Of a stretch of 45,515 bases of DNA, positions 812 to 33,697 are shown in pieces. The stretch is taken from NCBI GenBank assembly GCA_964494435.1, contig CAZBSN010000001.1:1-45515 (forward strand), in the 5' to 3' direction. The notes beneath the pieces were generated by a model, which was not told the origin of the DNA, made no database searches, and saw only the letters and a program-made list of their open reading frames with translations. Within the stretch, counting starts at the first letter, position 1; the number at the start of each line of letters is the position of its first letter. The translations under genes and the position numbers were made by a program. This DNA comes from an uncultured Candidatus Peribacteria bacterium. Its GTDB lineage: Bacteria; Patescibacteriota; Gracilibacteria; Peribacterales; Peribacteraceae.

Positions 812-2629
812 ATGTGTGGCATTGCCGGATTCAGCGGCGAAAATCGCGAGCAGATCGAACGGATGACTCGGTGTCTCGTGCACCGCGGCCCGGACGGTAA
901 TGCGGTGTGGACAGGACAAGGCGCTTCGCTCGGTCATGCACGTCTCGCGATCTTGGATCCACGACCAGAGGGAGATCAGCCGATGTGGAATGAAAACAAA
1001 ACAATCGCGATCGTCTACAACGGTGAAATTTTCAACTACCGCACGCTGCGAGAGGAGGAAAAGTTTTCATGCAGAACGACGACAGACACCGAAGTGCTGC
1101 TGAAACTCTATGAGAGACACGGCATGAAGTTCCTGCCGAGACTCCGAGGGATGTTTGCCATGGGCATTTACGACACGCGCGACCACTCATGGCATCTCGC
1201 ACGTGATACATCAGGAATTAAGCCGCTCTACGTTGCGTATCCAGAGAAACAACTCGCGTTTGCATCGGAAGTGAGATCACTCGCATCTGCATTACCACAG
1301 AAACCGGCAATCAACATGCGATCGCTCTCGCACTACATGAGATTGCAGTACGTCCCGGGACCAGAAACGCTCTGCGAGGGCATTGAATCACTCATGCCGG
1401 GGACACTCCTCGAATGGCGGGAAGGTACAGAGAAGCGCACGACGTTCCGGTCCATAGAATCGCATGCGCCTTTTGCCTCAAAGGGGTACTTCAGCGAGGC
1501 CTTCCCTGTCCTCATGCAGGAAGTAGTGAAGGACCACCTCATTTCCGATAAACCCGTCGGCATTTTCCTGAGCGGCGGGATGGATTCGTCGATCGTGTTG
1601 CATCACATGTGCAAGAATTCGACAAAACCCGTGAAGACATTCACAGTTCGCTTCGAAGCGACGGAGGAAGAAGGGAGTAAGCGCTTCAACGCCGATGCAG
1701 ACTTGGCAAAACTGACAGCCGCGCACTACGGCACAGAGCACAAAGAGATTTTCCTCACCGCTGAGCTCTTCAAGACGCTCTACCGCGAGACGGCTCGCTC
1801 GCTCGATCAGCCGAATGCCGATCACGTCTCGGTCGCGCAGTTTCTCCTCGCACGTGAAGCGAAGAAGGACGTCGACGTTGTGCTGAACGGTGCGGGAGGC
1901 GATGAACTCTTTGGCGGATACCCGCGTTATCGCATCGCGAAGATCTTGCGGGCGCTCCGCTTCATACCACCTTCTGTCCGATCATTAGCCGGGGGCATGT
2001 TTGGCCATCCGAAGGACGTCTTGGCGCTCCAACCTGGAGCGGAACTGGCAGAGCGCCTTTTGGCACGGCCAAGCCAAGAACTCCACGACCTCGCGCGCGG
2101 AGACTGGGCAGACGCGTCGCTCACCTCGCGCCTCTTCCGTGAACGGTTCTCAACGCTCAACCAGCTCGACCCTCTCCGTGCGTTCATGGAATTTGATCGC
2201 AGCCTCTGGCTCGTCGATGAATCCCTGCGACTCACCGACGGCACGACAATGGGCAGCGGCCTTGAAGCTCGTGTCCCTTTCCTCGACCCGCGCGTCATCG
2301 CTGCATCACACGCGACGAAGAGCGACTGGCACGTGACGATGAGAAGAACGAAGGCGCTTCTGAAAGATACGTACCGCGGCATTCTTCCGGATCACCTGTA
2401 TGGGCTTCCCAAGGCCAGCTTCTATCCCCCGCTCGCGAAGTGGCTCCGGAGAGAGTCCGCTCCCCTCGTAGAAGAGATGCTCGAACACAAACGCATACAA
2501 GAACTCTTCAAGGTTGAGAAGGTTCGCGATCTCTTTGAGCGTCATAAACGGAAGGAAACCTACGCTCTGCATACGCTTTCATCGCTCATCCAGCTCTCGC
2601 ACTGGTTTGATGCAGTGTACGATGCGTAA
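812..2629 (+). CDS. asnB: asparagine synthase (glutamine-hydrolysing) family amidotransferase
   Basis: N-terminal 'MCGIAGF' provides the Cys2 nucleophile of Ntn-type glutamine amidotransferases. PP-loop 'FLSGGMDSS' is present. 605 aa. Confidence 0.9.
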   Translation: MCGIAGFSGENREQIERMTRCLVHRGPDGNAVWTGQGASLGHARLAILDPRPEGDQPMWNENKTIAIVYNGEIFNYRTLREEEKFSCRTTTDTEVLLKLYERHGMKFLPRLRGMFAMGIYDTRDHSWHLARDTSGIKPLYVAYPEKQLAFASEVRSLASALPQKPAINMRSLSHYMRLQYVPGPETLCEGIESLMPGTLLEWREGTEKRTTFRSIESHAPFASKGYFSEAFPVLMQEVVKDHLISDKPVGIFLSGGMDSSIVLHHMCKNSTKPVKTFTVRFEATEEEGSKRFNADADLAKLTAAHYGTEHKEIFLTAELFKTLYRETARSLDQPNADHVSVAQFLLAREAKKDVDVVLNGAGGDELFGGYPRYRIAKILRALRFIPPSVRSLAGGMFGHPKDVLALQPGAELAERLLARPSQELHDLARGDWADASLTSRLFRERFSTLNQLDPLRAFMEFDRSLWLVDESLRLTDGTTMGSGLEARVPFLDPRVIAASHATKSDWHVTMRRTKALLKDTYRGILPDHLYGLPKASFYPPLAKWLRRESAPLVEEMLEHKRIQELFKVEKVRDLFERHKRKETYALHTLSSLIQLSHWFDAVYDA

Positions 2630-2635
2630 TGCCCG

Positions 2636-4096
2636 ATGCTGTTCCACTCCCCTGACTTCCTTTTTGTCTTCCTGCCCGTGGCACTCGCGGGATATTTCGT
2701 CTGTGCACGCTTCGGAAAGGCGTGGATGGCATTGGCATGGCTCACCGCAATGTCACTCCTCTTCTACGCGGAATGGAGCGAACGGTTCGCGCTGCTGCTC
2801 TTTTGTTCCATCGTCATCAACTATGTATTGGGCGACGCGCTGAGGAGAAACAACACCTGGAAGCGGCCGTTACTTACTCTCGGCATCGTGCTCAACCTCT
2901 CCGCACTTGCGTACTGCAAATATGCGAACTTCTTCCTCGACACGATTGGGTCCGATTGGACTCTGAAGGTCATCTTGCCGCTCGGCATTTCGTTCTTTAC
3001 CTTTGAGCAAATCGCATGGCTCGTGGAAAGCAGCCGGAACGAAGTGAAGACTGATTTCCTGCGCTACGCGGCATTCGTCACGTTCTTCCCAAAGCTCATT
3101 GCCGGGCCGATCGTTCGCCCGCATGAACTGCTGCCGCAGTTGGACGATGTGCAGACGAGACATCCACGCATGGAGAATTTCTCGGTCGGCATCACGATGT
3201 TCTCGATTGGACTCTTCAAGAAAGCGGTGATTGCTGATGCGTTGGCCCCCATAGCCGACACGATGTTCCGTGCAGCATCGGACGGCGATGTGACGTCAGT
3301 CGGTGCATGGACAGGAGTTGTCGCCTTCGCGCTTCAAATCTACTTCGACTTCTCCGGCTACACAGACATGGCCCTCGGCGTCGCGCGAATGTTCGGATTG
3401 AAATTGCCGCTCAACTTCGACGCACCGTACCAGTCGCTCTCCATAATCGACTTCTGGCGTCGGTGGCACATGTCCCTCTCGCGCCTCATCCGCGACTACG
3501 TCTATATCCCCCTCGGCGGAAGCAAGCGAGGAACCACGAGGCGTTACCTCAATCTCTTTATCACGATGGCTCTCTGCGGGCTCTGGCATGGAGCGGGTTG
3601 GACCTTTGTTGTGTGGGGAGCAATGCACGGTGTGTTCCTCATTGTGAATCACCTCTGGAGAAGCGTGAGAAAGGCCTTCGGTCTGGGGACGACAAGCACG
3701 TGGTGGAGCAGGAGCATTGCATGGGCTGTCACAATGATCTCGGTGTTGATCGCGTGGGCCTTCTTCCGCGCGGAGGACATGGCGTCCGCGTGGACGATCC
3801 TGCAGTCGATGGTTGGTCTTGGAAGTGGAACAAGCATCCCCCTGACGATATTTGCCACGCCTGCAGAATTCTGGCTCGTGATTCTCGGAGCGGGCGTCTT
3901 GCTCCTCCCAACCACGCAGCAATTCTTGCGATCCTACGCTCCGGCATATGAAGAAGAGATCGCGGAACGGGGCGTCGTCCGCATGCGATGGAAACCGAGC
4001 ATCACAACAGCATTCGCCACATCGGTGCTCTTCGTGACTGCGGTCTTTGTCTCCGTTGTTTCGACACGAACCGAATTCATCTACTTCCAATTCTGA
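2636..4096 (+). CDS. MBOAT family membrane-bound O-acyltransferase (AlgI/DltB/PatA-like)
   Basis: 486-aa polytopic protein. 'IIDFWRRWHMSLSRLIRDYVYIPLGGSKRG' and 'LWHGAGW' match the MBOAT catalytic-His region. Confidence 0.9.
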   Translation: MLFHSPDFLFVFLPVALAGYFVCARFGKAWMALAWLTAMSLLFYAEWSERFALLLFCSIVINYVLGDALRRNNTWKRPLLTLGIVLNLSALAYCKYANFFLDTIGSDWTLKVILPLGISFFTFEQIAWLVESSRNEVKTDFLRYAAFVTFFPKLIAGPIVRPHELLPQLDDVQTRHPRMENFSVGITMFSIGLFKKAVIADALAPIADTMFRAASDGDVTSVGAWTGVVAFALQIYFDFSGYTDMALGVARMFGLKLPLNFDAPYQSLSIIDFWRRWHMSLSRLIRDYVYIPLGGSKRGTTRRYLNLFITMALCGLWHGAGWTFVVWGAMHGVFLIVNHLWRSVRKAFGLGTTSTWWSRSIAWAVTMISVLIAWAFFRAEDMASAWTILQSMVGLGSGTSIPLTIFATPAEFWLVILGAGVLLLPTTQQFLRSYAPAYEEEIAERGVVRMRWKPSITTAFATSVLFVTAVFVSVVSTRTEFIYFQF

Positions 4097-5253
4097 TGCG
4101 CCACGGAACCTACATCGCCATCGTCGCACTCTGCGGGCTCGTACTGCCGCTCGCGGTCGCAGTAAACGCGGCATACCTGTGGCGTGCTGGCGAGCTCATG
4201 ACGATTCGAGAGATTGTCCGTATGCAAACGGAGGATGACACATGTCTCTATGGCACGGCTCTGCATGATGACACGCCGGCGTACAAGTACGAGGCATACA
4301 AAGCATTGAAGCCGGACATTGTTGTCCTGGGATCATCACGAGTCCTCACGGCGCGACAAAGCTTCTTCAGCGGCTCGTTCTACAACATGGGCAGCACGAT
4401 GCGATCAGCCGGGCTCGGAAGAGAGGCGGTGTCGTTCATGCTCGAACATCACACGCCGAAGTCCGTCTTCATCGCGATTGATCCATGGTGGTTCGCAGAT
4501 AATTTCCCGTACAAGGACGTGAAGCAAGGAAACGCACCAACGCGCTTCACGTTCGAAAAACTCCTGCAACCACTCTCGTGGATTGTGAGCGGCAAAGTAA
4601 CGCCAGATGAATTTTGGGACACACTCACCCAAGCACCGACGTCATGCCGCATCGGCGTGCAAGCGATGCAGAACGATGACGGCTTCGCCATCGACGGTTC
4701 CCACTACTACACCGGCGTCATCACCGGGCAGCGACCCGACGAAGCAGACATCAGCTTCGGTTCGGAGATTGAAGCAATCCAAGAAGGCCGAGGACACTCA
4801 CTGCCGAGCGATGCATTGGATGAGCAGTCGGTAGCGGCGTTCATTGAGATGGTGCACGAACTGGAAGCAGAAGGAATTAACGTCTTCGTGTTCCTTCCCC
4901 CGCTCTCCCCAACGGTCGTCGAGGCGATGCGCACAAGCGGCCACGCATACAGATACGCCAAGAAGTTGTCAGACACATTGGTCACATCGGGAATTCCCTT
5001 CCTCGATCTCACCGACCCGTCGCTCACGGGCTCAACCGATTGCGAGTTCGTCGACGGAATTCATGGCGGCGACGTTGTGGCGGCGAGAACGTTGCGCGCG
5101 ATCGACAACAAGCTCTCGTCCAACAATGGGATGCGCATGTGGTTAAACAGAGATGCGATAGACGAAATGATTAAAACGAGTGCAGGAAGGGCGACGGCGA
5201 AAGAGGCGCATGTGCCTGAAGTGGATTTCTTGGCTTTGGGATGCGAGAAATAG
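4096..5253 (+). CDS. SGNH/DltD/AlgJ-like acyltransferase partner of the MBOAT (membrane-anchored)
   Basis: ATG 4096 overlaps the MBOAT stop (TGATG at 4094-4098). There is an N-terminal TM helix 'YIAIVALCGLVLPLAVAV'. 'VVLGSSRV' (Ser block) and the C-terminal 'FVDGIHGG' (D-x-x-H block) resemble DltD/AlgJ/AlgX-type proteins. I rejected the ORF-track start at 3988 because it lies inside the MBOAT gene. Confidence 0.55.
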   Translation: MRHGTYIAIVALCGLVLPLAVAVNAAYLWRAGELMTIREIVRMQTEDDTCLYGTALHDDTPAYKYEAYKALKPDIVVLGSSRVLTARQSFFSGSFYNMGSTMRSAGLGREAVSFMLEHHTPKSVFIAIDPWWFADNFPYKDVKQGNAPTRFTFEKLLQPLSWIVSGKVTPDEFWDTLTQAPTSCRIGVQAMQNDDGFAIDGSHYYTGVITGQRPDEADISFGSEIEAIQEGRGHSLPSDALDEQSVAAFIEMVHELEAEGINVFVFLPPLSPTVVEAMRTSGHAYRYAKKLSDTLVTSGIPFLDLTDPSLTGSTDCEFVDGIHGGDVVAARTLRAIDNKLSSNNGMRMWLNRDAIDEMIKTSAGRATAKEAHVPEVDFLALGCEK

Positions 5254-9304: not shown

Positions 9305-10291
9305 ATGTACGTCATTGCAGAAATGGCCTGCTCCCACGAGGGAAACCCTGATCTCGCAAAAGTCATCATTGATGGCGCGGGGAAGGCAGGCGCAAGTGCG
9401 ATTCAATTCCAGATCTGGAAGTTGGACGAGTATGCGTCACCATCTCTACCTAATTATGCAGTGCTGCAGAAATTGGAGATGACGCCTGACGCATGGCGCG
9501 GCTTATATGTCTACGCAAAGAAACAGTATCCGAATATGGACATTATCGCGTGCGTGAGCGAGGCGTCGAGTTTGAAACTTACAGAAGAGATGGGAGTTGC
9601 GGCGTACAAGATTCACGCCGGCGATCTCACAAACCCTGATTTCATCAAGATGGTGGCAAAGACCGGCAAGCGCATTGATCTCGCAGTCGGAGCATCGACT
9701 GCTGAAGAGGTGCGTGCAGCGATCGGCTGGATTCGTGAAGCAGGGAAGAGCGACATCTGGCTCATGTACGGCTACCAGAACTTCCCCACGCGTCTCGACG
9801 ACGTGCATTTGAATCACATGCTGCAGTTGCAGGAAGAGTTCAAGGTGCCCGTCGGTTATCAAGATCACAGCGATGCGAACGATCGTTCCGCGTTCACAAT
9901 CCCCGCAGCAGCAGTCGGAATCGGAATCGATATCCAGGAGAAGCACATCACGCACGACCGTGGAAAGAAAGGTATCGACCACGAAGCAGCTCTCAACCCC
10001 GATGAATTCGCAGCGTTCGTCCGTATGTGCAACGACGTCGTGGCAGCACGCGGGCAGAAAGAATGGCGAGCATTCTCGGCAGACCAGGAGAAGTACCGCG
10101 CATACGCACGAAAGAGCATCGTTGCTGCAGCAGATATTCCTGCAGGAACGGCGCTCGCGGAGAGCCATCTCATGTCGCTTCGCCACTCCCCTCCCGCCCT
10201 CCCGCCCAAGGACATGTCATTGCTGCTCGGAAAGAAAACAACCCACGCTATTGCCACATACGAGCCTGTAACGGAGGAAGACGTCGCCTAA
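9305..10291 (+). CDS. NeuB-family nonulosonic/ulosonic acid synthase, divergent paralog 1 (328 aa)
   Basis: 'YVIAEMACSHEGN', 'AIQFQIW', the metal-ligand blocks 'GYQDHS' and 'IQEKHIT', and a C-terminal SAF-like 'ARKSIVAAADIPAGTAL'. Confidence 0.8.
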   Translation: MYVIAEMACSHEGNPDLAKVIIDGAGKAGASAIQFQIWKLDEYASPSLPNYAVLQKLEMTPDAWRGLYVYAKKQYPNMDIIACVSEASSLKLTEEMGVAAYKIHAGDLTNPDFIKMVAKTGKRIDLAVGASTAEEVRAAIGWIREAGKSDIWLMYGYQNFPTRLDDVHLNHMLQLQEEFKVPVGYQDHSDANDRSAFTIPAAAVGIGIDIQEKHITHDRGKKGIDHEAALNPDEFAAFVRMCNDVVAARGQKEWRAFSADQEKYRAYARKSIVAAADIPAGTALAESHLMSLRHSPPALPPKDMSLLLGKKTTHAIATYEPVTEEDVA

Positions 10292-10305: not shown

Positions 10306-11121
10306 ATGTCAGACATGTTCGACCTCACAGGCAAGACCGCGCTCATCGTCGGAGGACGCGGCTACTTGGGACGAAGAGCTGGCGCGTTGCTGCGAGACAG
10401 AGGCGCGACGGTGATCAGTGCGGACTTGGCGGCAAGCTCCAATGTCGCGACGAAAGCGAAGGCTGAGACTGATTCGAAGAACATCGAACAGAAGGACGTG
10501 GATGTGACGGATCAAAAGTCGGTACAAGCTCTCATGAAGAACATCTCAAAGGTCGATATCCTCATCTACAGCGTCACGGCAAAGCCGAAGGATTTCTATG
10601 CGCCCTACACCGAATGTTCACTCGAAGGATGGAAGCAGATCATCACGGCGGAGTTGGACGGCGCATTCCTGGTGACGCAGGCCGTTGGAAAGCTCATGGA
10701 AAAGCAGAAGAGCGGAGCGATCGTTCTCCTCTCCTCGATCTACGGCGTCGTCGGCAACGATCAACGGATTTACGAAGGATCGAACTTGGCAGATCTCTAC
10801 GCCAATGATCCTGAACATGCAGGAAAGACGTATTCGCACGGCGCCTACAACACAGCGAAGGGCGGCATCATCTCGCTCACGCGCTACCTTGCTGCATACT
10901 GGGGACGCTTCGGCATCCGCGTGAACTGCGTCAGCAGCGGCGGCATCTCACATCCCGGCGAGAATGAAGAATTCGTGAAGAAATACAGCGAGCGCACACC
11001 GCTCGGCCGCAAAGCAAAGCCAGATGAACTCGATGGTGCGATCCTCTATCTCGCATCAGAGGCATCGTCGTACGTCACCGGCCACAACTTAGTTGTTGAT
11101 GGCGGATGGACGGCGTGGTAA
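10306..11121 (+). CDS. short-chain dehydrogenase/reductase (classical SDR)
   Basis: 271 aa from ATG 10306. 'GKTALIVGGRGYLG' (Rossmann), 'SSIYG' and 'YNTAKGG' (YxxxK) are present. I rejected the track start at 10027 because it lies inside the preceding gene. Confidence 0.9.
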   Translation: MSDMFDLTGKTALIVGGRGYLGRRAGALLRDRGATVISADLAASSNVATKAKAETDSKNIEQKDVDVTDQKSVQALMKNISKVDILIYSVTAKPKDFYAPYTECSLEGWKQIITAELDGAFLVTQAVGKLMEKQKSGAIVLLSSIYGVVGNDQRIYEGSNLADLYANDPEHAGKTYSHGAYNTAKGGIISLTRYLAAYWGRFGIRVNCVSSGGISHPGENEEFVKKYSERTPLGRKAKPDELDGAILYLASEASSYVTGHNLVVDGGWTAW

Positions 11122-11133
11122 TCCATCCTCACC

Positions 11134-11856
11134 ATGAACCTCCTCATCACCATCTGCGCCCGCGGGGGCTCCAAAGGCATTCCGGGCAAGAACGTTCGGC
11201 TCATCAACGGAACGCCGCTCATCGCCTATAGCGTGAAGCACGCTCTCGAATACGCGAAGAAGACCGGAGCGGATGTGGCTCTCACGACAGACAGTGACGA
11301 CATTAAGAAGGTTGCTGCAGATGCAGGACTTGTGACGGACTACACGCGTCCGCCAGAACTTTCGACGGACAGCGCGAGCAAGCTTGAAACAATTCGCCAC
11401 CTCGTCTTCGCGACGGAGGAGAAGAATGGAAAGAAGTACGACATGGCGCTCGATCTCGACGTCACCTCCCCTCTTCGTACAGTGGAAGATTTGGATGCAG
11501 CTCGGAAGATGATGGAAGCCCAGCCCGACGCACATAACCTCTTCTCGGTGAGCTTCCCGAAACATAACCCGTACTTCGACATGATCGAGAAGGTGGAAGG
11601 CTCCCCCTTCGTGTCCCTTGTGAAAGTGCCAGAAAAGCAGATGTCGTCGCGCCAGCAGGGACCACGTGTGTTCGAGTTGAACGCATCCTTCTACTACTAC
11701 CGCCGCATCTTCTTCGAACAAGATCCAATGATCCTCGTCCGCAACTCACTCGCATACGAAATGCCGCATATGTGCTTCGAGTTGGATGAGATGATCGACT
11801 TCAACTTCCTCGACTACGTGCTCAAGGAGAAGAAGCTCGACTTCCACTTTGCATAA
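11134..11856 (+). CDS. neuA: acylneuraminate (CMP-nonulosonate) cytidylyltransferase
   Basis: 'LITICARGGSKGIPGKNVRLINGTPLI' is the signature N-terminus of the CMP-NeuAc/CMP-Leg/CMP-Pse synthetase family. 240 aa. Confidence 0.85.
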   Translation: MNLLITICARGGSKGIPGKNVRLINGTPLIAYSVKHALEYAKKTGADVALTTDSDDIKKVAADAGLVTDYTRPPELSTDSASKLETIRHLVFATEEKNGKKYDMALDLDVTSPLRTVEDLDAARKMMEAQPDAHNLFSVSFPKHNPYFDMIEKVEGSPFVSLVKVPEKQMSSRQQGPRVFELNASFYYYRRIFFEQDPMILVRNSLAYEMPHMCFELDEMIDFNFLDYVLKEKKLDFHFA

Positions 11857-12396
11857 ATGAGCTACAAGAATGCTCGGCTGGAGTTTGAGAGTCCGCGGCT
11901 GCGACTGCACGTCATGGAGGAGCACGACGCGACCGAGCAGTACGCAAGCTGGATCAATGATCCGGAGGTGCATCGTTTTCTCGGCACGAAGAGTACGACG
12001 ATTGATGAACTGAAGGATTACATTCAGCAGCGAGATCTCAAAGAAGACGCGCTCTTCTTTGGCGTCTTCCTCAAAGAGGACGGCACACACATTGGAACGG
12101 TGAAGCTGGAACCCATTCGTGAAGTTGAAGGGCATGCGACGATCGCAGTGATGATCGGCGACAAAGCGACCTGGGGAAAAGGCTACGCGGGCGAGGCGAT
12201 GCAGATCCTCATTGATTGGTGTTTTACAGAGTTGAACCTCGATGAAGTCCGTCTAGGAGTCATCGCAAAGAACACTGCCGCGATCCGCGTCTACGAGAAA
12301 TTAGGCTTCACGGAGACGAAGCGGGAGATGGGTGCGGTCAAATATGGAGACGAAGTGCACGATCAGGTCTGGATGACGCTGAAACGACCGTCCTGA
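11857..12396 (+). CDS. GNAT N-acetyltransferase (RimJ/RimL/PseH-like)
   Basis: 179 aa. The acetyl-CoA motif region is 'WGKGYAGEAMQILIDWCF...AIRVYEKLGF'. The start directly abuts the neuA stop (TAAATG). Confidence 0.85.
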   Translation: MSYKNARLEFESPRLRLHVMEEHDATEQYASWINDPEVHRFLGTKSTTIDELKDYIQQRDLKEDALFFGVFLKEDGTHIGTVKLEPIREVEGHATIAVMIGDKATWGKGYAGEAMQILIDWCFTELNLDEVRLGVIAKNTAAIRVYEKLGFTETKREMGAVKYGDEVHDQVWMTLKRPS

Positions 12397-12435: not shown

Positions 12436-13584
12436 ATGCGACGCTGTACACGATGCGTAATGCTCGAAACGCAGGACATGATCAGCTTCGACGCGGATGG
12501 CGTCTGCGCGACCTGCCAACAGATCCAGTACAAGCAAACGAAGATCGACTGGGATGAACGGAAGCGTGAATTTGAGGAGATCGTTTCACAGACGAAAGGA
12601 AAAGGACCGTACGACTGCATCGTCCCCTTCAGCGGCGGCAAAGACAGCACGTTCACGGCTCTCGCACTCAAGCGGGATTTCGGCCTCAAGCCGCTCATCG
12701 TGAGCTTCGACCACGGCTTCTACCGACCAAACGTCTTGCGGAACAATGAACGCTCCATCAAGAAGCTTGGCGTCGATTACCTGAAGTTCAAATCGGACTG
12801 GCAAATCGTGAAGAAGCTCATGCGCGAGTCGCTCATTCGCAAAGGCGACATCATGTGGCATTCCCACTGCGGCATTTATGCCTATCCCATGCACGTCGCC
12901 GTGCAATTGAAAGTTCCGCTCCTCATTTGGGGCGAGCCGACGTCGGAGTATGTGAGTTACTACAGCTACGAAGAGAACGAACAGGTTGACGAGAAACGCT
13001 TCAACCGCGTCGTGAACCTTGGCATCAACGCCGAAGACATGGTGGGCATGCTCGACGGCAAAGTAACCGCACGCGATTTGATCCCTTATACGTATCCGAA
13101 TATCGGCGATCTGCGCGCGATTGGATACCGCTCCATTTGTCTTGGAACGTACATCCCCTGGGACACACGCACACAATCTGAACGTATTCGCACCGAACTC
13201 GGATGGCAGGGAGACAAGGTCGAAGGCATTCCCTACGAACGCTACTGGTACGAAAAGGTGGAAGACGCCTTCCAGGGCATCCAGGATTACCTCAAGTGGC
13301 TCAAGCGCGGCATGTCTCGCATGACACACTTAGCCTCGATCGACATCCGCAACGGCCGCATGACGCGCGAGGAAGGATTGAAGTTAATCGAGCAGTACGA
13401 AGGATTTAGACCGGCCAGCTTGGACGTGTTCTTGAAGGCCATCGATATGACCGACGAAGAATTCCACGAGATCGCCCTCAAGCACGTCGTGAGCCCGCAC
13501 GTCCCACCGGATTGGAGGAAGCTCCCGCGCGGCCCAGAGCTGGCGGATCAGAAGGATTGGACCATCAACATCGATCAAGAGTGA
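12436..13584 (+). CDS. N-acetyl sugar amidotransferase (PP-loop; WbuX/WbpG/PseA/PtmG family)
   Basis: An N-terminal Cys-rich ribbon 'CTRCVM...DGVCATC' is followed by the PP-loop 'VPFSGGKDST'. 382 aa. HisH/HisF paralogs follow immediately. Confidence 0.85.
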   Translation: MRRCTRCVMLETQDMISFDADGVCATCQQIQYKQTKIDWDERKREFEEIVSQTKGKGPYDCIVPFSGGKDSTFTALALKRDFGLKPLIVSFDHGFYRPNVLRNNERSIKKLGVDYLKFKSDWQIVKKLMRESLIRKGDIMWHSHCGIYAYPMHVAVQLKVPLLIWGEPTSEYVSYYSYEENEQVDEKRFNRVVNLGINAEDMVGMLDGKVTARDLIPYTYPNIGDLRAIGYRSICLGTYIPWDTRTQSERIRTELGWQGDKVEGIPYERYWYEKVEDAFQGIQDYLKWLKRGMSRMTHLASIDIRNGRMTREEGLKLIEQYEGFRPASLDVFLKAIDMTDEEFHEIALKHVVSPHVPPDWRKLPRGPELADQKDWTINIDQE

Positions 13585-13611
13585 GGTTTGGTCTCATGGT
13601 AGAGTGACCCC

Positions 13612-14232
13612 GTGATAGTGATTGTCGATTACGGCTTGGGGAACCTCTTCTCGGTGCAAAAAGCATTCGAGATGCTCGGTGCGCCGGTGAAAGTGTCCGG
13701 CGATCCTGCAGATGTCCACACAGCAGACCGCATTGTCCTGCCGGGAGTGGGAGCATTTGGGGATGGCATGGACTACTTACGCGCAAAGGGGCTCGATCGT
13801 GCGTTGACTGCGGAAGTGATGGGAAAGAAGAAACCGTTCCTCGGCATTTGCCTCGGTTTGCAACTCCTCGCTGAGATCGGGGAGGAATACGGAGAGCACC
13901 AAGGCTTCGGATGGATGAAAGGACGCGTCCGAAAGCTCGACGTCGAAAAGTTAGGACTCAAGATTCCGCACATTGGCTGGAACGAGCTGACGATGACGCG
14001 TGAATGCCCGCTCTTTGCAGGAATTCCGAAGGATGCAGATTTCTATTTCGTGCATAGCTACCAACTGGACTGTGGCGACACATCGGATCTGGTCGCAACT
14101 GCGACGTACGGAGAAACGGTGACTGCAGCCGTTCAGCGCGAGAACATCGCCGCGACGCAGTTCCACCCGGAGAAGAGCCAGGACAATGGCCTCAAGCTTC
14201 TTGAAAACTGGATCGCCTGGAACCCCGCATAA
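13612..14232 (+). CDS. hisH: HisH-like class-I glutamine amidotransferase (glycan amidation paralog)
   Basis: 'IVIVDYGLGNL', the nucleophile elbow 'GICLGLQLL', 'VHSY' and 'ATQFHPEKS'. Confidence 0.9.
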   Translation: MIVIVDYGLGNLFSVQKAFEMLGAPVKVSGDPADVHTADRIVLPGVGAFGDGMDYLRAKGLDRALTAEVMGKKKPFLGICLGLQLLAEIGEEYGEHQGFGWMKGRVRKLDVEKLGLKIPHIGWNELTMTRECPLFAGIPKDADFYFVHSYQLDCGDTSDLVATATYGETVTAAVQRENIAATQFHPEKSQDNGLKLLENWIAWNPA

Positions 14233-14234
14233 CC

Positions 14235-14993
14235 ATGCTGAAAGTCCGTCTCATTCCAACGTTGCTCCTCAAAGATGGTCGCATGATCAAGACCAAGCAA
14301 TTTGATGCATACCGCGACGTCGGCAATCCACGGACGACAGCGAAAGTGTATGACGCACAGCGTGCAGATGAATTGATCTTCCTCGATATCACCGCCACGG
14401 TGGAAAATCGTCATCTCCTTCTCGACGTCATCACCGCAGTCGCAGAAGAGTGCTTCATGCCGCTCACGGTCGGCGGAGGCATTCGGACGATCGAGCAAGC
14501 ACGCGAGCTGTTGCTGCACGGCGCGGACAAAGTAGCGATCAACACTGCTGCAGTTGAGAGACCGGAATTCATCACAGAACTCGCGAAGAAGTTCGGACGC
14601 TCAACAGTGGTGGTATCAATCGACTTCAAGAAGAACGCAGACGGCAAGAATGAAGTGTTCACACTTCGAGGAACAAAACCGACGGGTAAGGATCCGGTGA
14701 CATGGGCGAAGGAAGCAGAGACACTTGGAGCCGGAGAAATTCTCCTCACATGCATCGACCGCGAAGGGATGATGAACGGATACGACCTCGATACTCTCAA
14801 AGCGGTGACGTCGGCAGTCACTATTCCAGTCATATCTTCAGGGGGAGTGGGAACGATCCAAGATCTCGTGGATGGCATCGTCATTGGTGGAGCTTCCGCC
14901 GTATCGGCTGCGAGCATCTTCCACTTCACGGATCAGAGCATCTTCAAGGCACACTCACACATGAAGCAGAAAGGCTTATCGGTGCGGAAATAA
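14235..14993 (+). CDS. hisF: HisF-like cyclase subunit (WbuZ/AglZ/HisF2-type acetamidino-modification protein)
   Basis: 'RLIPTLLLKDGRMIKTKQF', 'DELIFLDITA', 'LTVGGGIR' and 'SSGGVG'. Confidence 0.9.
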   Translation: MLKVRLIPTLLLKDGRMIKTKQFDAYRDVGNPRTTAKVYDAQRADELIFLDITATVENRHLLLDVITAVAEECFMPLTVGGGIRTIEQARELLLHGADKVAINTAAVERPEFITELAKKFGRSTVVVSIDFKKNADGKNEVFTLRGTKPTGKDPVTWAKEAETLGAGEILLTCIDREGMMNGYDLDTLKAVTSAVTIPVISSGGVGTIQDLVDGIVIGGASAVSAASIFHFTDQSIFKAHSHMKQKGLSVRK

Positions 14994-15036: not shown

Positions 15037-16350
15037 ATGGAGAACACGGGCCAAGCGCTCTATCGGCAAGCAAAGAAGCTGATCCCCGGCGGAACACAGC
15101 TTCTCTCGAAACGTCCGGAATTTATCCTGCCGGACCTGTGGCCCGCGTACTACACGAAGGTGAAAGGCGTGGAGGTGTGGGACCTCGATGGAAAGAAGTA
15201 TGTCGATATGTTTCAGAATGGAGTGGGCACATGCGTTCTTGGTGCAGCTGACCCGGATGTGAACGCAGCGGTGATGCACGCAGTCGATAACGGTTCGATG
15301 TCGACCCTGAACAGCCCAGAGGAAGTGGAGCTAGCCGAGATTCTTTGTGAACTTCATCCATGGGCGTCTATGGTGCGCTATGCCAGATGCGGAGGAGAAG
15401 TGTTGGCGATCGCCGTCCGCATTGCTCGTGCGCACACGAAGAAGGACAAGATCGCTTTCTGCGGGTACCACGGCTGGCATGACTGGTACTTGGCAGCGAA
15501 CCTCGCAGACGATCACACGCTCGACGGTCACTTATTGCCAGGATTGGACCCAACAGGCGTTCCGCGACAGCTTGCCGGCACGGCGCTCCCCTTCCGCTTC
15601 AATCATTTGGAGGAATTGGAAGCGATCATTGAGAAACACGGCAAAGAGATTGGCACGATCGTCATGGAGCCGCTCCGCACGGCGGATCCCGCTCCCGGTT
15701 TCTTGGAAGGCGTACGCGCAATCGCTACGAAGATTGGAGCGATCCTCATCTTCGACGAAGTGACGTCCGGCTTCCGCCTCAATGCGGGCGGCGCGCATTT
15801 GCTCCTCGGCGTTGAGCCGGACATGGCCGTGTTCGCGAAGGGCATGAGCAACGGCTACCCCATGGCTGCCGTCATCGGACGAGGAGACGTGATGAACACC
15901 GCTCAAGACAGCTTCATCAGCAGCACGTACTGGACAGAGCGCATCGGCTTCGCGGCGGCGGTCGCAACAATCAAGAAATTCCGCGAGAAGAACGTGCATG
16001 AGCACCTCATTCGCATCGGCACGCTCGTGCAAGAAGGCTGGAAAAAAACCGCGGAAGAAACGGGATGCCCCGTCCACGTTAGCGGCATCGCACCACTCAG
16101 CCACTTCGGGGTTGAATGCGACGACCCGCTTGCGGCCAAGACGCTGTTTACCCAAATCCTGCTCGAAGAAGGCTTCCTTGCCGGCTCGCTTTTCTACGCC
16201 ACGTACGCTCACACGGAGGATCACGTGGAGTCCTACATGAAGGCTGTGAAGAAAGCGTTCGCAGTGATTGCGAAAGCGCTAAAGGAGGGCAACCTAAAGG
16301 CGCAACTACAAGGAGGCGTCGCGCATGCGGGCTTCTACCGCCTGGCCTGA
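15037..16350 (+). CDS. class-III PLP aminotransferase (glutamate-1-semialdehyde aminomutase-like)
   Basis: 'LIPGGTQLLSKRP', 'IFDEVTSGFR' and 'FAKGMSNGYP' (PLP lysine). 437 aa. Confidence 0.85.
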   Translation: MENTGQALYRQAKKLIPGGTQLLSKRPEFILPDLWPAYYTKVKGVEVWDLDGKKYVDMFQNGVGTCVLGAADPDVNAAVMHAVDNGSMSTLNSPEEVELAEILCELHPWASMVRYARCGGEVLAIAVRIARAHTKKDKIAFCGYHGWHDWYLAANLADDHTLDGHLLPGLDPTGVPRQLAGTALPFRFNHLEELEAIIEKHGKEIGTIVMEPLRTADPAPGFLEGVRAIATKIGAILIFDEVTSGFRLNAGGAHLLLGVEPDMAVFAKGMSNGYPMAAVIGRGDVMNTAQDSFISSTYWTERIGFAAAVATIKKFREKNVHEHLIRIGTLVQEGWKKTAEETGCPVHVSGIAPLSHFGVECDDPLAAKTLFTQILLEEGFLAGSLFYATYAHTEDHVESYMKAVKKAFAVIAKALKEGNLKAQLQGGVAHAGFYRLA

Positions 16351-16384: not shown

Positions 16385-17533
16385 ATGCCTTTCAGCATCG
16401 AAAATGGCCACACGTATATCATCGCGGAAGCAGGTGTGAACCATGACGGCAACATTGAGAGGGCATACGAACTGATCGATAGTGCGGCCGATGCCGGCGC
16501 TGACGCCGTGAAGTTCCAGCTCTTCAATCCAACGGAAGTCACATCACCTGCGGCGCGGAAAGCGGAATACCAAATCGCGAACGAAGGCAAAGGTGACGAT
16601 ATCGAAAGTCAGCAGGAAATGCTCCAGCGCTTAACGCTGAAGCTTGATGATTACCGGGAGCTGAAGAAATACACAGAGAGTAAGGGCATCGACTTCATTA
16701 CAACGCCGTTCGATGCTGAGTCCGCGCGCTTCCTCGCGAGCCTCGGCGTGAAGAAGATGAAGATTCCGTCGGGTGAAGTCACCAATCTGCCATTCTTGGA
16801 ACAAGTGGCGAAGCTTGGCATTGATACGGTGATTTCAACGGGAATGTGTAATTTGGAGGACATTGATGATGCTATAGCCGTCTTCAAAAAGCACGGTACA
16901 TCGTATTCACTACTGCACTGTGTGAGCTCCTACCCCGCTCCTGCAGAGCAGATCAACCTGCGCGCGATGAACACGATGCGCGCGAAGTTCAACGTCTCGA
17001 TTGGATACTCCGATCACACAGTCGGCATCGACGCCTCGCTCGCTGCGGTCGCAATGGGAGCACAGATTATCGAAAAACACTTCACCTACGACAAGGAAGC
17101 CTCCGGTCCAGATCATGCGGCGTCACTCGAACCACAGGAATTGAAAGAGATGGTGCGGGGCATTCGCTTAGTGGAAAAAGCACGCGATCAGGAAGGTGTG
17201 AATGCACTGCAGGATGAAGCACGAATGGATCGCATTTTCCAATCATCCGAACTGAGCGGCATGGTCGATCTGGCATTGGTCAAGAAGATGCTCGGCGATG
17301 GCGTGAAGCAATGCCAGCCGTGCGAAGCGGATGTGTTGAAGATGGGGCGCAGGTCCTGCCAAGTGACGGTCGATGTAAAGAAGGGCGATGTCCTGACACG
17401 AGAGATGATCGCGATCCGCCGTCCTGCAGACGATGGGCTGCCGCCAAAAAAGATAGACGAGATTGTGGGGAAGAAAGCGGCACGGGATCTGGCTGCCAAT
17501 AGCCTCCTCAGGCAGGATGACATCGCATGGTGA
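16385..17533 (+). CDS. neuB: NeuB-family nonulosonic acid synthase, canonical paralog 2 (LegI/NeuB-like, 382 aa)
   Basis: Start ATG 16385. 'YIIAEAGVNHDGN', 'AVKFQLF', 'GYSDHTVG', 'IIEKHFT' and 'SGPDHAASL', plus a C-terminal SAF-like domain. Confidence 0.9.
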   Translation: MPFSIENGHTYIIAEAGVNHDGNIERAYELIDSAADAGADAVKFQLFNPTEVTSPAARKAEYQIANEGKGDDIESQQEMLQRLTLKLDDYRELKKYTESKGIDFITTPFDAESARFLASLGVKKMKIPSGEVTNLPFLEQVAKLGIDTVISTGMCNLEDIDDAIAVFKKHGTSYSLLHCVSSYPAPAEQINLRAMNTMRAKFNVSIGYSDHTVGIDASLAAVAMGAQIIEKHFTYDKEASGPDHAASLEPQELKEMVRGIRLVEKARDQEGVNALQDEARMDRIFQSSELSGMVDLALVKKMLGDGVKQCQPCEADVLKMGRRSCQVTVDVKKGDVLTREMIAIRRPADDGLPPKKIDEIVGKKAARDLAANSLLRQDDIAW

Positions 17534-18657
17534 AGAAAATCCTCGCTCTCACAGGCACACGGGCTGATTACGGCATTTATAAGCCTGTTTTTGACGCTAT
17601 CAAGGCATCCAAGAATTTGTCATTGGAACTGATCGTTACGGGCATGCACCTGCGACCGGAGTTCGGAAAGACTGTCGACGTCATTCACCAAGACGGCTTC
17701 AAGGTCATTGCAGAACTCAACACACTCACGACCGAAGACACTCCACGTGCAATGACGGAGTACGTCGCCCGAACACTGATGGAGATCGTGAAAGTGCTCT
17801 CGGAACATCGACCAGACATCTTCTTCATCCTCGGCGATCGCGGCGAGATGCTCGCAGGCGCGATCGCGGCGGCGGAACTGCACATCCCGATCGCTCATCT
17901 CCATGGTGGAGAGCTGACGGGCCACATCGATGATCTGGTGCGTCCCGCAATCACGCAGTTGTCACAGATCCACCTCACGACAGCCGAGCCTCACTCACAG
18001 AACGTTCAGACGATGCTCCTGCGCTCCACACCGCACATTCACACCGTCGGAGCTCCCGCGCTCGACACCGTGCGACATTTGAAGCCTGTCCCAAAAGCTG
18101 AGCTCTGTGCGGAAATGAACCTGGATCCGTCTCTCCCCGTCATTCTCTTTGTGCAGCACCCGGACACGCTTGATGCACATACGCCCGAAGCACAACTAAA
18201 GCCGTCGCTGGAAGCATTGGAACATTTTGAGGGCAACGTGATGATCGTCGGAGCGAATGCCGACGCGGGGGGTGTGCACATGAATGCGGTGCTGGAAGCT
18301 TTCGCGAAGAAGCAAAAGAATCGTGCGTTCGTTCTCTCGCTGCCACATGAACGCTTCCTCTCATGGGAAGCGGCTGCAGATGTACTCATGGGAAACTCAT
18401 CAAGCGGCATCATCGAAGCCGCATCATTCCGTTTGCCCGTCGTGAACATTGGCGAACGACAAAGAGGCAGGCTGCGCTCTGGAAACGTGCTCAATGTTCC
18501 GTATGATCGTGCAGCCATCGAGAAAGCTCTGGAAAAGGCTCTGCATGATGAAACATTCCGCGCTGAAGTCCAGGTGTGCCACAACGCCTACGGAGATGGA
18601 CGGTCTGCCGAGAAAATCGCCCAAATTTTCGAGCATTTCGAACAATACGCAGCATAA
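17527..18657 (+). CDS. neuC: UDP-N-acetylglucosamine 2-epimerase (hydrolysing), NeuC/LegG type
   Basis: 'LALTGTRADYGIYKPV', 'GDRGEMLAGAIAAAELHIPIAHLHGGE' and 'GNSSSGIIEAASFRLPVVNIGERQRGR'. The start overlaps the neuB stop (ATGGTGA). Confidence 0.9.
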   Translation: MVKKILALTGTRADYGIYKPVFDAIKASKNLSLELIVTGMHLRPEFGKTVDVIHQDGFKVIAELNTLTTEDTPRAMTEYVARTLMEIVKVLSEHRPDIFFILGDRGEMLAGAIAAAELHIPIAHLHGGELTGHIDDLVRPAITQLSQIHLTTAEPHSQNVQTMLLRSTPHIHTVGAPALDTVRHLKPVPKAELCAEMNLDPSLPVILFVQHPDTLDAHTPEAQLKPSLEALEHFEGNVMIVGANADAGGVHMNAVLEAFAKKQKNRAFVLSLPHERFLSWEAAADVLMGNSSSGIIEAASFRLPVVNIGERQRGRLRSGNVLNVPYDRAAIEKALEKALHDETFRAEVQVCHNAYGDGRSAEKIAQIFEHFEQYAA

Positions 18658-18698
18658 AGGATGTTCCATCGGATGAGCAAAACGCGTATCCTGCGCGG

Positions 18699-19331
18699 GT
18701 GGATTCCCTCCCTTCCATTGTGCTCTATGGCGCAGGCGGCCAAGGAAAAGTAGTGGCCGACTGCATCGAGCGCGCCGGAACATTTTCGATCGTCGGATTC
18801 GTCGATGACGCAACGTCGGGAGAGTTTTTTGAATATCCCATCCTGGGTGATGCATCGGCACTCCCGTCCATTTATACAAACGGCATCCGTCACGCGTTCG
18901 CATGCATTGGAGATCCGACGGCACGCCAATCCGCCGTGGAGCGACTGCACAGCGCTGGGTTCATGATCGCCACGATCCTTCATCCTTCGGCACAGTGTGG
19001 ACGAGGATCCTCGTTCGGTGAGGGAGCCGTCGTACTCCCGGCTGCCGTCATTGGACCAGATGCGATTGCAGGGATTGGATGCATCATCAACACAAGCGCG
19101 ACCGTCGACCATGATTGCGTTCTCGGTTCGTATGTGCACATCGCTCCAGGGGCGCATCTTGCCGGAGGCGTGCATGTCGGTGACCATTCATTCATTGGCA
19201 TCGGGAGCGTCGTGCGCGAAGGCATATCGATCGGTCGCAACGTCATCGTGGGCGCCGGTTCAGTCGTCGTTGAGAACCTTCCTGATGACTGCGTCGCTTT
19301 CGGAGTCCCTGCAAAACCACAATCCACGTAA
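18699..19331 (+). CDS. NeuD/PglD/LegH-family sugar N-acetyltransferase (left-handed beta-helix)
   Basis: There is no in-frame ATG, so I chose GTG 18699 (GTG 18720 is an alternative). This gives the family-typical N-terminus 'IVLYGAGGQGKVVADCIE', followed by hexapeptide repeats 'IGCIINTSATVDHDCVLGSYVHIAPGAHLAGGVHVGDHSFIGIGSVV'. Confidence 0.8.
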   Translation: MDSLPSIVLYGAGGQGKVVADCIERAGTFSIVGFVDDATSGEFFEYPILGDASALPSIYTNGIRHAFACIGDPTARQSAVERLHSAGFMIATILHPSAQCGRGSSFGEGAVVLPAAVIGPDAIAGIGCIINTSATVDHDCVLGSYVHIAPGAHLAGGVHVGDHSFIGIGSVVREGISIGRNVIVGAGSVVVENLPDDCVAFGVPAKPQST

Positions 19332-20474
19332 ATGGCACGCTTCTCCATCCCCCTCTCCCGGCCAGACATCGCCCCCGAAGACATTGAGGAGGTCGTGTCG
19401 GTTCTCCGAAGTCCGCACCTCTCGCTCGGCCCACGTCTTCCCGCATTCGAAAAGGACGTAGCGGCATTCGTCGGAACGAAGCACGCAGTCGCTGTGAGCA
19501 ACGGCACGTGCGGACTTCATCTGTGCATCCGAGCGCTTGGAATCAAAGACGGAGATGAAGTGATTACGACGCCATTCAGCTTCGTTGCATCGGCAAACTG
19601 CATCCTCTACGAACGAGCCGTGCCGGTCTTCGTCGATATTGTGAAGGACACGTACTGCATCGATCCCGTTGCAGTCGAACGCGCCATCACGCCGAAGACG
19701 AAAGCAATCGTCGCGGTGGATGTATTCGGTTACCTCTGCGATTGGGACGCGCTTCGAGCAATCGCGAAGAAGCACAACCTCGCACTGATTGAAGACAGTT
19801 GTGAGGCGCTCGGCTCAACGAAAGATGGAAAGCAAGCTGGCACATTCGCGGACTGTGCGGTGTTCGCGTTCTACCCGAATAAGCAGATGACCACAGGTGA
19901 AGGCGGCGTCATTGTGACGGATCGAGACGACATCGCACGCAGCTGCACAGTAATGCGCAACCAAGGACGCTCCCCTGACGCGGCGTGGCTCGAACACGAG
20001 GTGCTTGGATTCAACTATCGCATCAGCGACATCAACTGCGCGCTCGGCCAGAGCCAGCTCAGGAGACTTCCCAGCTTCATTGAGAAGCGGCGCCAGGTCG
20101 CAGCGTGGTACGGAGAAGAATTACAGGCATTCGGAGGAGACATTATCGCCGCCGGAGACCAAGAAGGAGTATCTATCAGTTGGTTCGTGTATGTGGCACG
20201 TCTGGCGGATAGGTTTGCGGCCACGGATCGCAACGCGCTCATCACCTTCCTGCGATCCCAGGGGATCGGCTGCAACACCTATTTCCCGGCAATCCACTTG
20301 CAGCCCTTCTACCGAGCCATGGGGCACAAAAATGGAGAATTTCCGCTCACAGAAGCCCTATCTGACCGTACACTCGCTCTCCCATTCCACACCAATCTCT
20401 CGAAAGAAGAGGTTGCAACGGTCTGCAGAACGCTGAAAGATGGGCTGTCCAGGCTTTCACAGGGCTCTCTATGA
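19332..20474 (+). CDS. DegT/DnrJ/EryC1/StrS-family sugar aminotransferase (LegC/PglE-like)
   Basis: 'IPLSRPDI', 'AVSNGTCGLHL' and 'FAFYPNKQMTTGEGG' (PLP lysine). Confidence 0.9.
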   Translation: MARFSIPLSRPDIAPEDIEEVVSVLRSPHLSLGPRLPAFEKDVAAFVGTKHAVAVSNGTCGLHLCIRALGIKDGDEVITTPFSFVASANCILYERAVPVFVDIVKDTYCIDPVAVERAITPKTKAIVAVDVFGYLCDWDALRAIAKKHNLALIEDSCEALGSTKDGKQAGTFADCAVFAFYPNKQMTTGEGGVIVTDRDDIARSCTVMRNQGRSPDAAWLEHEVLGFNYRISDINCALGQSQLRRLPSFIEKRRQVAAWYGEELQAFGGDIIAAGDQEGVSISWFVYVARLADRFAATDRNALITFLRSQGIGCNTYFPAIHLQPFYRAMGHKNGEFPLTEALSDRTLALPFHTNLSKEEVATVCRTLKDGLSRLSQGSL

Positions 20475-33675: not shown

Positions 33676-33697
33676 GCAGGTGGGCTACCATACGGCC

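Follow-up and report, generated by a model that had tools for sequence, protein, structure and literature searches.

A NeuB-family protein of a distinct deep clade, with a rebuilt active-site pocket and genetically coupled to CMP activation, beside a LegI-type synthase in a Candidatus Peribacteria surface-glycan locus

The stretch of DNA analysed here (the window: 45,515 nucleotides, positions 1 to 45,515 of contig CAZBSN010000001.1, assembly GCA_964494435.1, from an uncultured Candidatus Peribacteria bacterium) encodes two NeuB-family proteins, and the first of these, which we call NeuBL, is the subject of this report. Judged from its sequence, NeuBL belongs within the NeuB family to a clade of its own, so far uncharacterised, in which the pocket has been rebuilt. 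We give a probability of roughly 40% to the reading that it is a second condensing synthase feeding the cytidine monophosphate (CMP)-transferase of the locus. The two genes are as follows.

9305 to 10291, forward strand: NeuBL (P0001), NeuB-family paralog with a TIM barrel and a SAF domain
16385 to 17533, forward strand: P0002 (paralog 2), canonical NeuB/LegI-type synthase; TIGR03569 415.1 bits, above the cut-off of 399.65

An earlier note, written from the letters of the window, had described two intact NeuB-family genes on the same strand, and this description held. The open reading frame (ORF) of NeuBL translated to 328 aa without an internal stop and that of P0002 to 382 aa, also free of stops. 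NeuBL scored 158.7 bits against the Pfam NeuB model (PF03102, cut-off 22.1) and 36.7 bits against SAF (PF08666, cut-off 21), so both superfamily domains were present; P0002 scored 308.5 bits against NeuB, at the same cut-off, and also matched SAF. The sequence blocks ascribed to each paralog were found in the translations, with IIAEAGVNHDGN, GYSDHTVG and IEKHFT in P0002, and IAEMACSHEGN, GYQDHS and QEKHIT in NeuBL. The IAEMACSHEGN block that had been called unusual was indeed observed, but it is not peculiar to this locus, AEMACSH[ED] being the hallmark of a large family.

The two proteins aligned over their full length at 27% identity (E = 9e-37). NeuBL fell below the cut-offs of both curated models, with 208.7 versus 399.65 bits for TIGR03569 (NeuB_NnaB, the N-acetylneuraminate/legionaminate synthase equivalog) and 163.3 versus 340.25 bits for TIGR03586 (PseI, the pseudaminic acid synthase equivalog), which ruled it out as a true LegI. 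P0002 carries the full set of canonical pocket residues; it passes the curated NeuB/LegI model and lies directly upstream of LegG, LegH, LegC and LegB, and its assignment to anything other than LegI was thus ruled out. An insertion of about 50-60 residues separates the TIM barrel from the SAF domain of P0002 (residues ~268-326) relative to NeuB of Neisseria meningitidis (NmNeuB), SpsE and NeuBL, and because of it P0002 matched the curated NeuB model in two stretches. Split matches to the curated model were also observed in many of the canonical synthases that accompany NeuBL in related loci (hereafter partner synthases).

Homologs of NeuBL were numerous. A search of 5.8 billion proteins returned hundreds of ~330-aa homologs at 52-71% identity, and an exhaustive search of 50%-identity clusters yielded 509 cluster representatives with E < 1e-30. 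Where the ~330-aa homologs listed from the first search had an informative name, it was 'N-acetylneuraminate synthase family protein', 'sialic acid synthase SpsE' or 'N,N'-diacetyllegionaminate synthase'. The closest relatives (69-71% identity) were from metagenome-assembled genomes of Candidatus Peribacteria with a matching gene order. An alignment of 23 members had a mean column identity of 64%, with the invariant motifs IAEMACSHEG, AIQFQIW, CVYE, YKIHSxDLSNP, WLMYGYQNFPT, GYQDHSD, EKHITHDR and DHEAALNPDEF. This column identity, the clade's own invariant motifs and the hundreds of homologs at least 52% identical all point to purifying selection on NeuBL.

A tree of 111 sequences (FastTree, Shimodaira-Hasegawa-like support) contained one deep split with 100% support, which separated 65 NeuBL-type rows (34 NeuBL and 31 nearest representatives) from 46 canonical rows. 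All 39 partner synthases from the same loci were on the canonical side, as were the four references of solved structure, NmNeuB, Bacillus subtilis SpsE, Campylobacter jejuni PseI and the Leptospira 6NCS protein. P0001 fell among NeuBL sequences of many phyla, in a clade of 20 rows (97% support). Since the two groups lie on opposite sides of a fully supported split, the tree indicates that NeuBL is a sister branch to all characterised nonulosonate synthases, and not a subtype of the neuraminic (Neu), legionaminic (Leg) or pseudaminic (Pse) acid synthases. The clade signature, in NmNeuB numbering, consists of Q53, C110, H131, D134, G182, Q184, F186 and Q213 together with AEMACSH[ED], and P0001 has all eight residues. 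A profile did not separate the clades, canonical NeuB proteins scoring up to ~230 bits on the NeuBL profile across 301 genomes. No named cultured carriers were found on plasmids, where all matches were below 34% identity and the best, from Azospirillum lipoferum 4B, was an ordinary annotated neuB.

The 27% identity and the deep clade split ruled out a recent duplication or an assembly artefact, in agreement with the earlier note. They also bear on simple redundancy, in which NeuBL would be a second Leg synthase isozyme with the same substrates and product as P0002. We find this explanation hardly credible: family, operon and fold are shared as it would require, but the deepest split of the tree runs between the two proteins, fixed differences are seen at eight positions of the pocket (below), NeuBL scores far below both curated synthase cut-offs, and the pair is conserved across phyla. 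That NeuBL is kept in a genome of ~1 Mb also argues against redundancy. The alignment, phylogeny and pocket comparison that the earlier note had proposed all point to old, functionally distinct paralogs; placement in one clade with identical pocket residues, which it had named as the sign of redundancy, was not what we observed.

The AlphaFold2 model of NeuBL had a predicted local distance difference test score (pLDDT) of 94.2 and matched NmNeuB (1xuu) with a template modelling (TM) score of 0.87 and E = 1.3e-29 in Foldseek, showing the same two-domain fold of a TIM barrel and an antifreeze-like domain. The top Foldseek matches were NmNeuB, PseI and SpsE, and the next structural neighbours were all phosphoenolpyruvate (PEP)-condensing synthases of 3-deoxy-D-arabino-heptulosonate 7-phosphate (DAHP) or 3-deoxy-D-manno-octulosonate 8-phosphate (KDO8P). 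We mapped 61 close NeuBL sequences and 56 partner synthases to NmNeuB numbering; the counts out of 61 apply to these closer members of the clade, and the wider clade was counted separately on 170 representatives.

H215, H236 (metal ligands), E234, D247, K129, Q55: kept in 61/61 NeuBL and 55-56/56 partners
E25: NeuBL, E in 52/52 aligned, 9 gaps; partners, 52 E, 2 D, 2 gaps
R314 (SAF arginine): NeuBL, R in 55/61, including P0001; partners, R in 53/56
K53: NeuBL, Q in 61/61; partners, K in 55/56
T/S110: NeuBL, C in 61/61; partners, T or S in 55/56
Position 131 (G in NmNeuB): NeuBL, H in 56/61; partners, P, A, G or S
S132: NeuBL, S in 45/61; partners, S in 55/56
E134: NeuBL, D in 61/61; partners, E in 36, D in 15
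S154: NeuBL, S in 56/61; partners, S in 53/56
C182: NeuBL, G in 61/61; partners, C in 55/56
Position 184 (N in NmNeuB): NeuBL, Q in 61/61; partners, S or T in 53/56
Y186: NeuBL, F in 60/61; partners, Y in 55/56
S213: NeuBL, Q in 61/61; partners, S in 56/56

Both metal-ligand histidines were found in P0001 and in all 61 relatives. The catalytic acidic set E25/E134/E234 was also retained in NeuBL, with E134 as Asp, a replacement often seen among archaeal, eukaryotic and environmental synthases, active enzymes included (PMC8208679). An aromatic residue was kept at position 288. The conserved PEP/intermediate pocket (K53, T/S110, K129, S132, S154, C182, Y186, S213) was not found as such in NeuBL. 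In NmNeuB, residues 25, 55, 74, 110, 112, 129, 184, 186, 213, 215, 234, 288 and 314 contact an analogue of the tetrahedral intermediate (PMC6795526), and residues 110, 129, 131, 132, 182 and 184 surround PEP, in a region that has stayed conserved across the Neu, Leg and Pse enzymes, in contrast to the variable sugar region (PMC7371886). Among the 170 representatives of the wider NeuBL clade we counted G182 in 156, Q184 in 155, H131 in 114 and D134 in 122, and K53Q was confined to the closer subclade. We take K53, S132 and S154 to be PEP ligands as in 1XUZ, with the two serines at the phosphate; NmNeuB residues 273-294, used to place F288, were likewise presumed, and agree with the published numbering of F288, N309 and R314.

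Taken by position, these residues suggest that NeuBL has kept its metal site, its acid-base residues and the clamp for the N-acetyl group, and that its donor/intermediate pocket has been systematically rebuilt. A loss of all PEP ligands was not upheld, K129 being invariant and S132 and S154 kept in most members (P0001 has Ala at both positions). The possibility that NeuBL is a pseudo-enzyme, for which the earlier note had looked to missing catalytic residues, was ruled out by metal and catalytic residues that are essentially invariant across the 61 sequences, and NeuBL is an intact, selected and probably catalytic NeuB-fold enzyme.

The coupling of NeuBL to CMP activation was examined in the window and in 80 related loci from named genomes. 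The two genes that follow NeuBL in the window are listed below.

10309 to 11121, forward strand: short-chain dehydrogenase (SDR; Pfam adh_short_C2), starting 17 nt after NeuBL
11134 to 11856, forward strand: NeuA/LegF-type CMP-nonulosonate synthetase (Pfam CTP_transf_3)

The cytidylyltransferase is therefore the second gene downstream of NeuBL, with the SDR between them, and the window shares in the coupling described here. A search of the whole assembly (1.03 Mb in 163 contigs, 84.9% complete) returned two genes of the NeuB family, a single CTP_transf_3 gene and no others of either kind, and all three are inside the window; the single cytidylyltransferase is a count for the assembled part of the genome, with ~15% unseen and some room left for a second one. 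The order given in the earlier note, with NeuBL followed by an SDR and then by the only CMP-transferase gene, was thus reproduced. The closest solved relatives of this cytidylyltransferase are the CMP-N-acetylneuraminate synthetases 6ifd, 9ftb, 1qwj and 1eyr.

The 80 loci span Peribacteria, Chloroflexota, Acidobacteriota, Planctomycetota, Omnitrophota, Nitrospirota, several proteobacterial classes, Margulisiibacteriota, Saccharimonadota and several archaeal groups, with Marinospirillum sp. ABH-597 (L064) as the sole isolate. A CTP_transf_3 gene was directly downstream of NeuBL, or fused to it, in 65 of these. The other 15 included six that stop at a contig edge, three with the Peribacteria order (SDR, then cytidylyltransferase) and three with the cytidylyltransferase immediately upstream. 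Overlaps of 4 nt between the NeuBL and cytidylyltransferase genes were frequent, and fusions of the two accounted for 28 of the 150 nearest cluster representatives (27 with a C-terminal SpsF-like domain and one with an N-terminal NeuA-like domain). A triple fusion, P0129 (963 aa, L090/L091), joins an SpsE-like NeuB, NeuBL and a cytidylyltransferase in the order NeuB-NeuBL-CTP. The canonical domain of P0129 carries H30F and E134G and may be degenerate, and a seemingly similar read-through ORF, in the order NeuBL~CTP~NeuB, was observed in L041.

Canonical NeuB was present in 63/80 loci, in 42 of the 49 loci of at least 15 kb, and in all eight genomes that were searched whole, six of which have none at the locus itself. 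The typical order is NeuBL, cytidylyltransferase, LegI, LegG, LegH, PtmE, LegB, LegC, and most loci contain only one set of hexose-forming enzymes. Two synthase-like genes with one cytidylyltransferase are a recurrent pattern and not a local oddity, and from these gene orders NeuBL is predicted to act in addition to LegI and to be functionally tied to CMP activation. An association with pseudaminic pathways was considered and weakened, since the partner synthase of L089/L090, which at first looked Pse-like, groups with B. subtilis SpsE of the Leg-type sps pathway; PseI-like partners were observed only at a few distant NeuBL members (L088, L066, L058).

The close adjacency, the 4-nt overlaps and the fusions would also be expected if NeuBL were a non-catalytic partner that serves the cytidylyltransferase or LegI as a scaffold or regulatory subunit. 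A heterodimer with NeuBL is conceivable, since NeuB enzymes form domain-swapped dimers, and a canonical NeuB was always found alongside in the eight genomes. We nevertheless consider such a role very unlikely, as the metal His pair, E25, E234, D134, D247 and K129 are essentially invariant across the 61 sequences from many phyla, and the active sites of the partner LegI proteins are complete, with a SAF arginine of their own.

The cytidylyltransferase that usually adjoins NeuBL is SpsF/KdsB-like and belongs to no curated family. The window is atypical in this regard, its partner being of the NeuA type, as is the domain paired with NeuBL in the fusion P0252. In L017, L027, L032, L061 and L064 the cytidylyltransferase after NeuBL had no NCBIfam equivalog and only weak KdsB matches, and forms an uncharacterised family of its own. 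This NeuBL-linked cytidylyltransferase, whose closest solved relative is 6OEW, deposited as 'Cytidylyltransferase', is distinct from the NeuA-type enzyme of the window. A second cytidylyltransferase, of the NeuA type, was found in 18/80 loci, often adjoining a radical-SAM/SPASM gene. In L032, L036, L046, L049, L054, L057 and L072 the NeuA-type gene next to radical-SAM/SPASM resembles that at 11134-11856, and the two may form a separate tailoring pair acting on the CMP-nonulosonate.

The prevalence of SpsF/KdsB-like neighbours, together with the strongly rebuilt pocket, could instead indicate that the product of NeuBL is an unrelated ulosonic acid (e.g. one that is shorter and Kdo- or Kdn-like), made from a general metabolite for another position of the glycan, the CMP-transferase being shared for convenience. 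This is unlikely in our judgement. The R314 equivalent, which binds a 2-N-acetyl group, is kept in 55/61 sequences and the aromatic residue at 288 is also retained, NeuBL is embedded inside Leg gene sets and not at their edges, and the partner cytidylyltransferase in the window is NeuA-type.

The reading we prefer, at the probability given above, is that NeuBL is an active, metal-dependent, aldol-type enzyme of the NeuB fold that forms a unit with the cytidylyltransferase of the Leg pathway, beside LegI and not in its place. We infer its enzymatic activity, donor, acceptor and product as follows. The aldehyde of a 2-acetamido hexose would be activated by the Mn/His site and the acid-base Glu and Asp residues that NeuBL has kept. 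The hexose would come from the same LegB, LegC, LegH and LegG enzymes, and the R314 equivalent in the SAF domain would hold its N-acetyl group. The donor would be a three-carbon compound, in the simplest case PEP, bound in a different pose in the rebuilt pocket (Q53, C110, H131, G182, Q184, F186, Q213). The product would be a nonulosonic acid unlike Leg5Ac7Ac, e.g. in its C4 configuration or N-substituent, and would be handed to the neighbouring CMP-transferase; in the genome of the window the same enzyme would have to activate the product of LegI as well. This reading is favoured by structural neighbours that are all PEP-condensing and by the retention of K129, S132 and S154, and enzyme families usually keep their chemistry. 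Two synthase/synthetase pairs are also plausible because a second, NeuA-type cytidylyltransferase is present in 18 of the loci.

Several observations weigh against a second condensing synthase. The changes K53Q, T110C, C182G, Y186F and S213Q (60-61/61) fall where the partner synthases are near-invariant (55-56/56). Positions 110, 182, 186 and 213 are reported to border the PEP or intermediate site (PMC7371886, PMC6795526), whereas a plain change of sugar specificity should show in the sugar pocket, so PEP may not be the donor. In P0001, moreover, 132 and 154 are both Ala. Because most loci have a single hexose-forming set, there is no obvious second acceptor, and in at least three genomes (that of the window, G000, and also G003 and G008) there is a single nonulosonate-type cytidylyltransferase for two NeuB-family proteins. 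NeuBL was never the sole NeuB-family protein in the eight genomes checked whole, and an independent synthase would need no such partner. Finally, literature searches aimed at the clade or at two-NeuB clusters found no paper on NeuBL, and large phylogenies of nonulosonate synthases do not single the clade out (PMC8208679).

Much of this evidence would fit the main alternative, a post-synthase remodelling role, in which NeuBL uses no PEP and acts on the open-chain product of LegI before activation. The chemistry would be a metal-assisted retro-aldol/aldol reaction or an enolisation, e.g. between Leg and its C4 epimer, with the cytidylyltransferase pulling the product from the equilibrium. We regard this as a genuine possibility, held tentatively. 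A canonical NeuB in 8/8 genomes and in 63/80 loci would be expected of a sequential pathway, as would the sufficiency of one cytidylyltransferase in G000, G003 and G008, the single hexose-forming set in most loci and the NeuB-NeuBL-CTP domain order of P0129, and the invariant changes cluster at the donor site with the metal/aldehyde-oxygen site kept. On the other side, the usual gene order of NeuBL-CTP-NeuB differs from the pathway order, the presumed phosphate ligands S132 and S154 are retained in most members, and the co-occurrence sample of eight genomes and 80 loci is small. To our knowledge no relative among the NeuB, KDO8P synthase (KDO8PS) or DAHP synthase (DAHPS) proteins acts as an aldolase or epimerase.

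The earlier note had offered three readings, namely two ulosonic acids activated by one promiscuous CMP-transferase, a different hexosamine as acceptor, or a non-canonical aldol reaction, and on the sequences all three are possible. The fixed changes in the PEP/intermediate pocket give non-canonical chemistry more weight than a simple change of sugar specificity. A more specific proposal, which we hold to be fairly doubtful, is that NeuBL is the determinant that has been missing for nonulosonic acids epimeric at C4, e.g. 4-epi-legionaminic acid. It could be so as a synthase, with the rebuilt donor pocket turning the three-carbon unit towards the other face of the aldehyde, or as an epimerase derived from NeuB that needs no PEP and converts free Leg by retro-aldol/aldol chemistry, and in either case the attached cytidylyltransferase would select the product. 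We know of no described route to 4-epi-legionaminic acid. Fusaminic acid is its counterpart in the pseudaminic series. The gene cluster for fusaminic acid has not been investigated (PMC7371886).

The window as a whole is one large surface-glycan locus of ~55% G+C. The other genes of its nonulosonate region were assigned as follows.

11857 to 12396, forward strand: GNAT N-acetyltransferase (Pfam Acetyltransf_3), weakly PseH-like (46.5 bits, below cut-off)
12436 to 14993, forward strand: WbuX amidotransferase, HisH and WbuZ/HisF trio, an acetamidino-forming set (TIGR03573 352.7, TIGR01855 244.7 and TIGR03572 301.7 bits, all above their respective cut-offs)
15037 to 16350, forward strand: class-III (glutamate-1-semialdehyde-aminomutase-like) aminotransferase, a tailoring candidate (Pfam Aminotran_3)
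17527 to 18657, forward strand: hydrolysing 2-epimerase NeuC/LegG (TIGR03568 385.8 bits, above cut-off)
18576 to 19331, forward strand: PglD/LegH-type N-acetyltransferase (Pfam PglD_N and Hexapep), with its true start probably near 18699
19332 to 20474, forward strand: DegT/LegC-type aminotransferase (Pfam DegT_DnrJ_EryC1, 404.6 bits)
20471 to 21523, forward strand: LegB-type NDP-GlcNAc 4,6-dehydratase (Pfam Polysacc_synt_2, 358.4 bits)

P0002, LegG, LegH, LegC, LegB and the NeuA-type cytidylyltransferase are together predicted to make up the whole Leg route without NeuBL, and no Pse-type genes such as PseG were found in the window. Five tailoring candidates (the GNAT gene, the WbuX/HisH/WbuZ trio and the class-III aminotransferase) lie between the two NeuB genes. 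The class-III aminotransferase recurs downstream of NeuBL-CTP in L077, L082, L084, L087 and L088, sometimes with a Gfo/Idh/MocA gene between; speculatively, and by analogy with Kdo8N formation, the aminotransferase and an oxidoreductase could add an amino group to the nonulosonate. The best named NCBIfam matches of the SDR were generic (gluconate 5-dehydrogenase PRK08213, and oxidoreductase PRK09186 at 155 bits, below cut-off).

A genome of ~1.03 Mb gives at least 45 kb to a single glycan locus with more than 10 glycosyltransferase genes and both NeuB paralogs. Upstream of an ABC exporter and NeuBL, the regions 230-793 and 812-5253 encode a shikimate-kinase-like P-loop kinase, an AsnB-type amidotransferase, an MBOAT protein and an unannotated 421-aa protein, and an MBOAT gene is also found two genes upstream of NeuBL in the related locus L093. 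Three successive genes at 33680-36260 encode an oxidoreductase of the Gfo/Idh/MocA type, a hexapeptide acetyltransferase and a DegT aminotransferase; they resemble a 3-acetamido sugar module of the WbpB/WbpD/WbpE type and look less like an ElaA partner of the SDR.

The surfaces of bacteria and archaea, their recognition by phages and by the immune system, and the assembly of flagella are all shaped by nonulosonic acids (sialic, legionaminic and pseudaminic acids, with their epimers). Which sugar a given genome makes is currently predicted by classifying its NeuB homolog as Neu-, Leg- or Pse-type. NeuBL adds a deep fourth branch to the family, and one that is common among environmental phyla and bacteria of the candidate phyla radiation. 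Annotation pipelines name it 'N-acetylneuraminate synthase family protein' or 'legionaminate synthase', so the nonulosonate predictions for carrier organisms are probably incomplete. Its reaction would add a pathway to a new nonulosonic acid or epimer, or new chemistry in a well-studied superfamily; a PEP-independent epimerase, if true, would give the NeuB/KDO8PS/DAHPS superfamily its first reaction other than that of a synthase. Marinospirillum sp. ABH-597 offers a culturable carrier.

Among known enzymes, NmNeuB (PDB 1XUU/1XUZ/2WQP) and NeuBL have a common fold (TM 0.87) and have H215, H236, E25, E234, K129, Q55, D247 and R314 in common. They differ in overall identity (~26%), in K53Q, T110C, G131H, E134D, C182G, N184Q, Y186F and S213Q, each found in 56-61 of the 61 NeuBL sequences, and in clade, NmNeuB being canonical and NeuBL outside. 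PseI of C. jejuni (PDB 8H2C) is the best sequence match to NeuBL among solved structures (E = 1.1e-25) and has the same fold, but carries the canonical K53, S110, C182, Y186 and S213 that NeuBL does not.

A precedent for an additional synthase is found in the Leptospira Leg cluster, which contains an extra, distantly related NeuB-family synthase with extra aminotransferases and extra cytidylyltransferases (PMC3438082). The cluster of L. interrogans thus has two synthases and two CMP-synthetases (PMC3438082). The second Leptospira synthase carries a phosphatase domain at its C-terminus and has been proposed to act on a phosphorylated sugar (PMC3438082), whereas NeuBL has no such domain.

Part of the NeuBL neighbourhood also resembles the ElaABC CMP-Leg 8-epimerase of Acinetobacter baumannii KL49, with its ElaB/ElaA/ElaC enzyme set (PMC13656337). 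In 12/80 NeuBL loci, the gene after NeuBL is a CTP_transf_3~Gfo/Idh/MocA fusion and the next is an SDR homologous to that at 10309-11121, an arrangement that corresponds to this set. The SDR of the window sits where the ElaC-type SDR stands in 8-epi-Leg systems, and the window has the SDR and the cytidylyltransferase but no adjacent Gfo/Idh/MocA gene. The Ela paper mentions no NeuB-like component (PMC13656337), and NeuBL also occurs without Ela-type genes.

NeuBL also shares its kind of cluster with LegI of C. jejuni and SpsE of B. subtilis (PDB 1VLI), which belong to the same family and are found with LegB, LegC, LegH and LegG and a cytidylyltransferase. The LegI role in the window is already taken by P0002, and SpsE groups with the partner synthases and not with NeuBL; SpsE, like NeuBL, adjoins an SpsF-type cytidylyltransferase.

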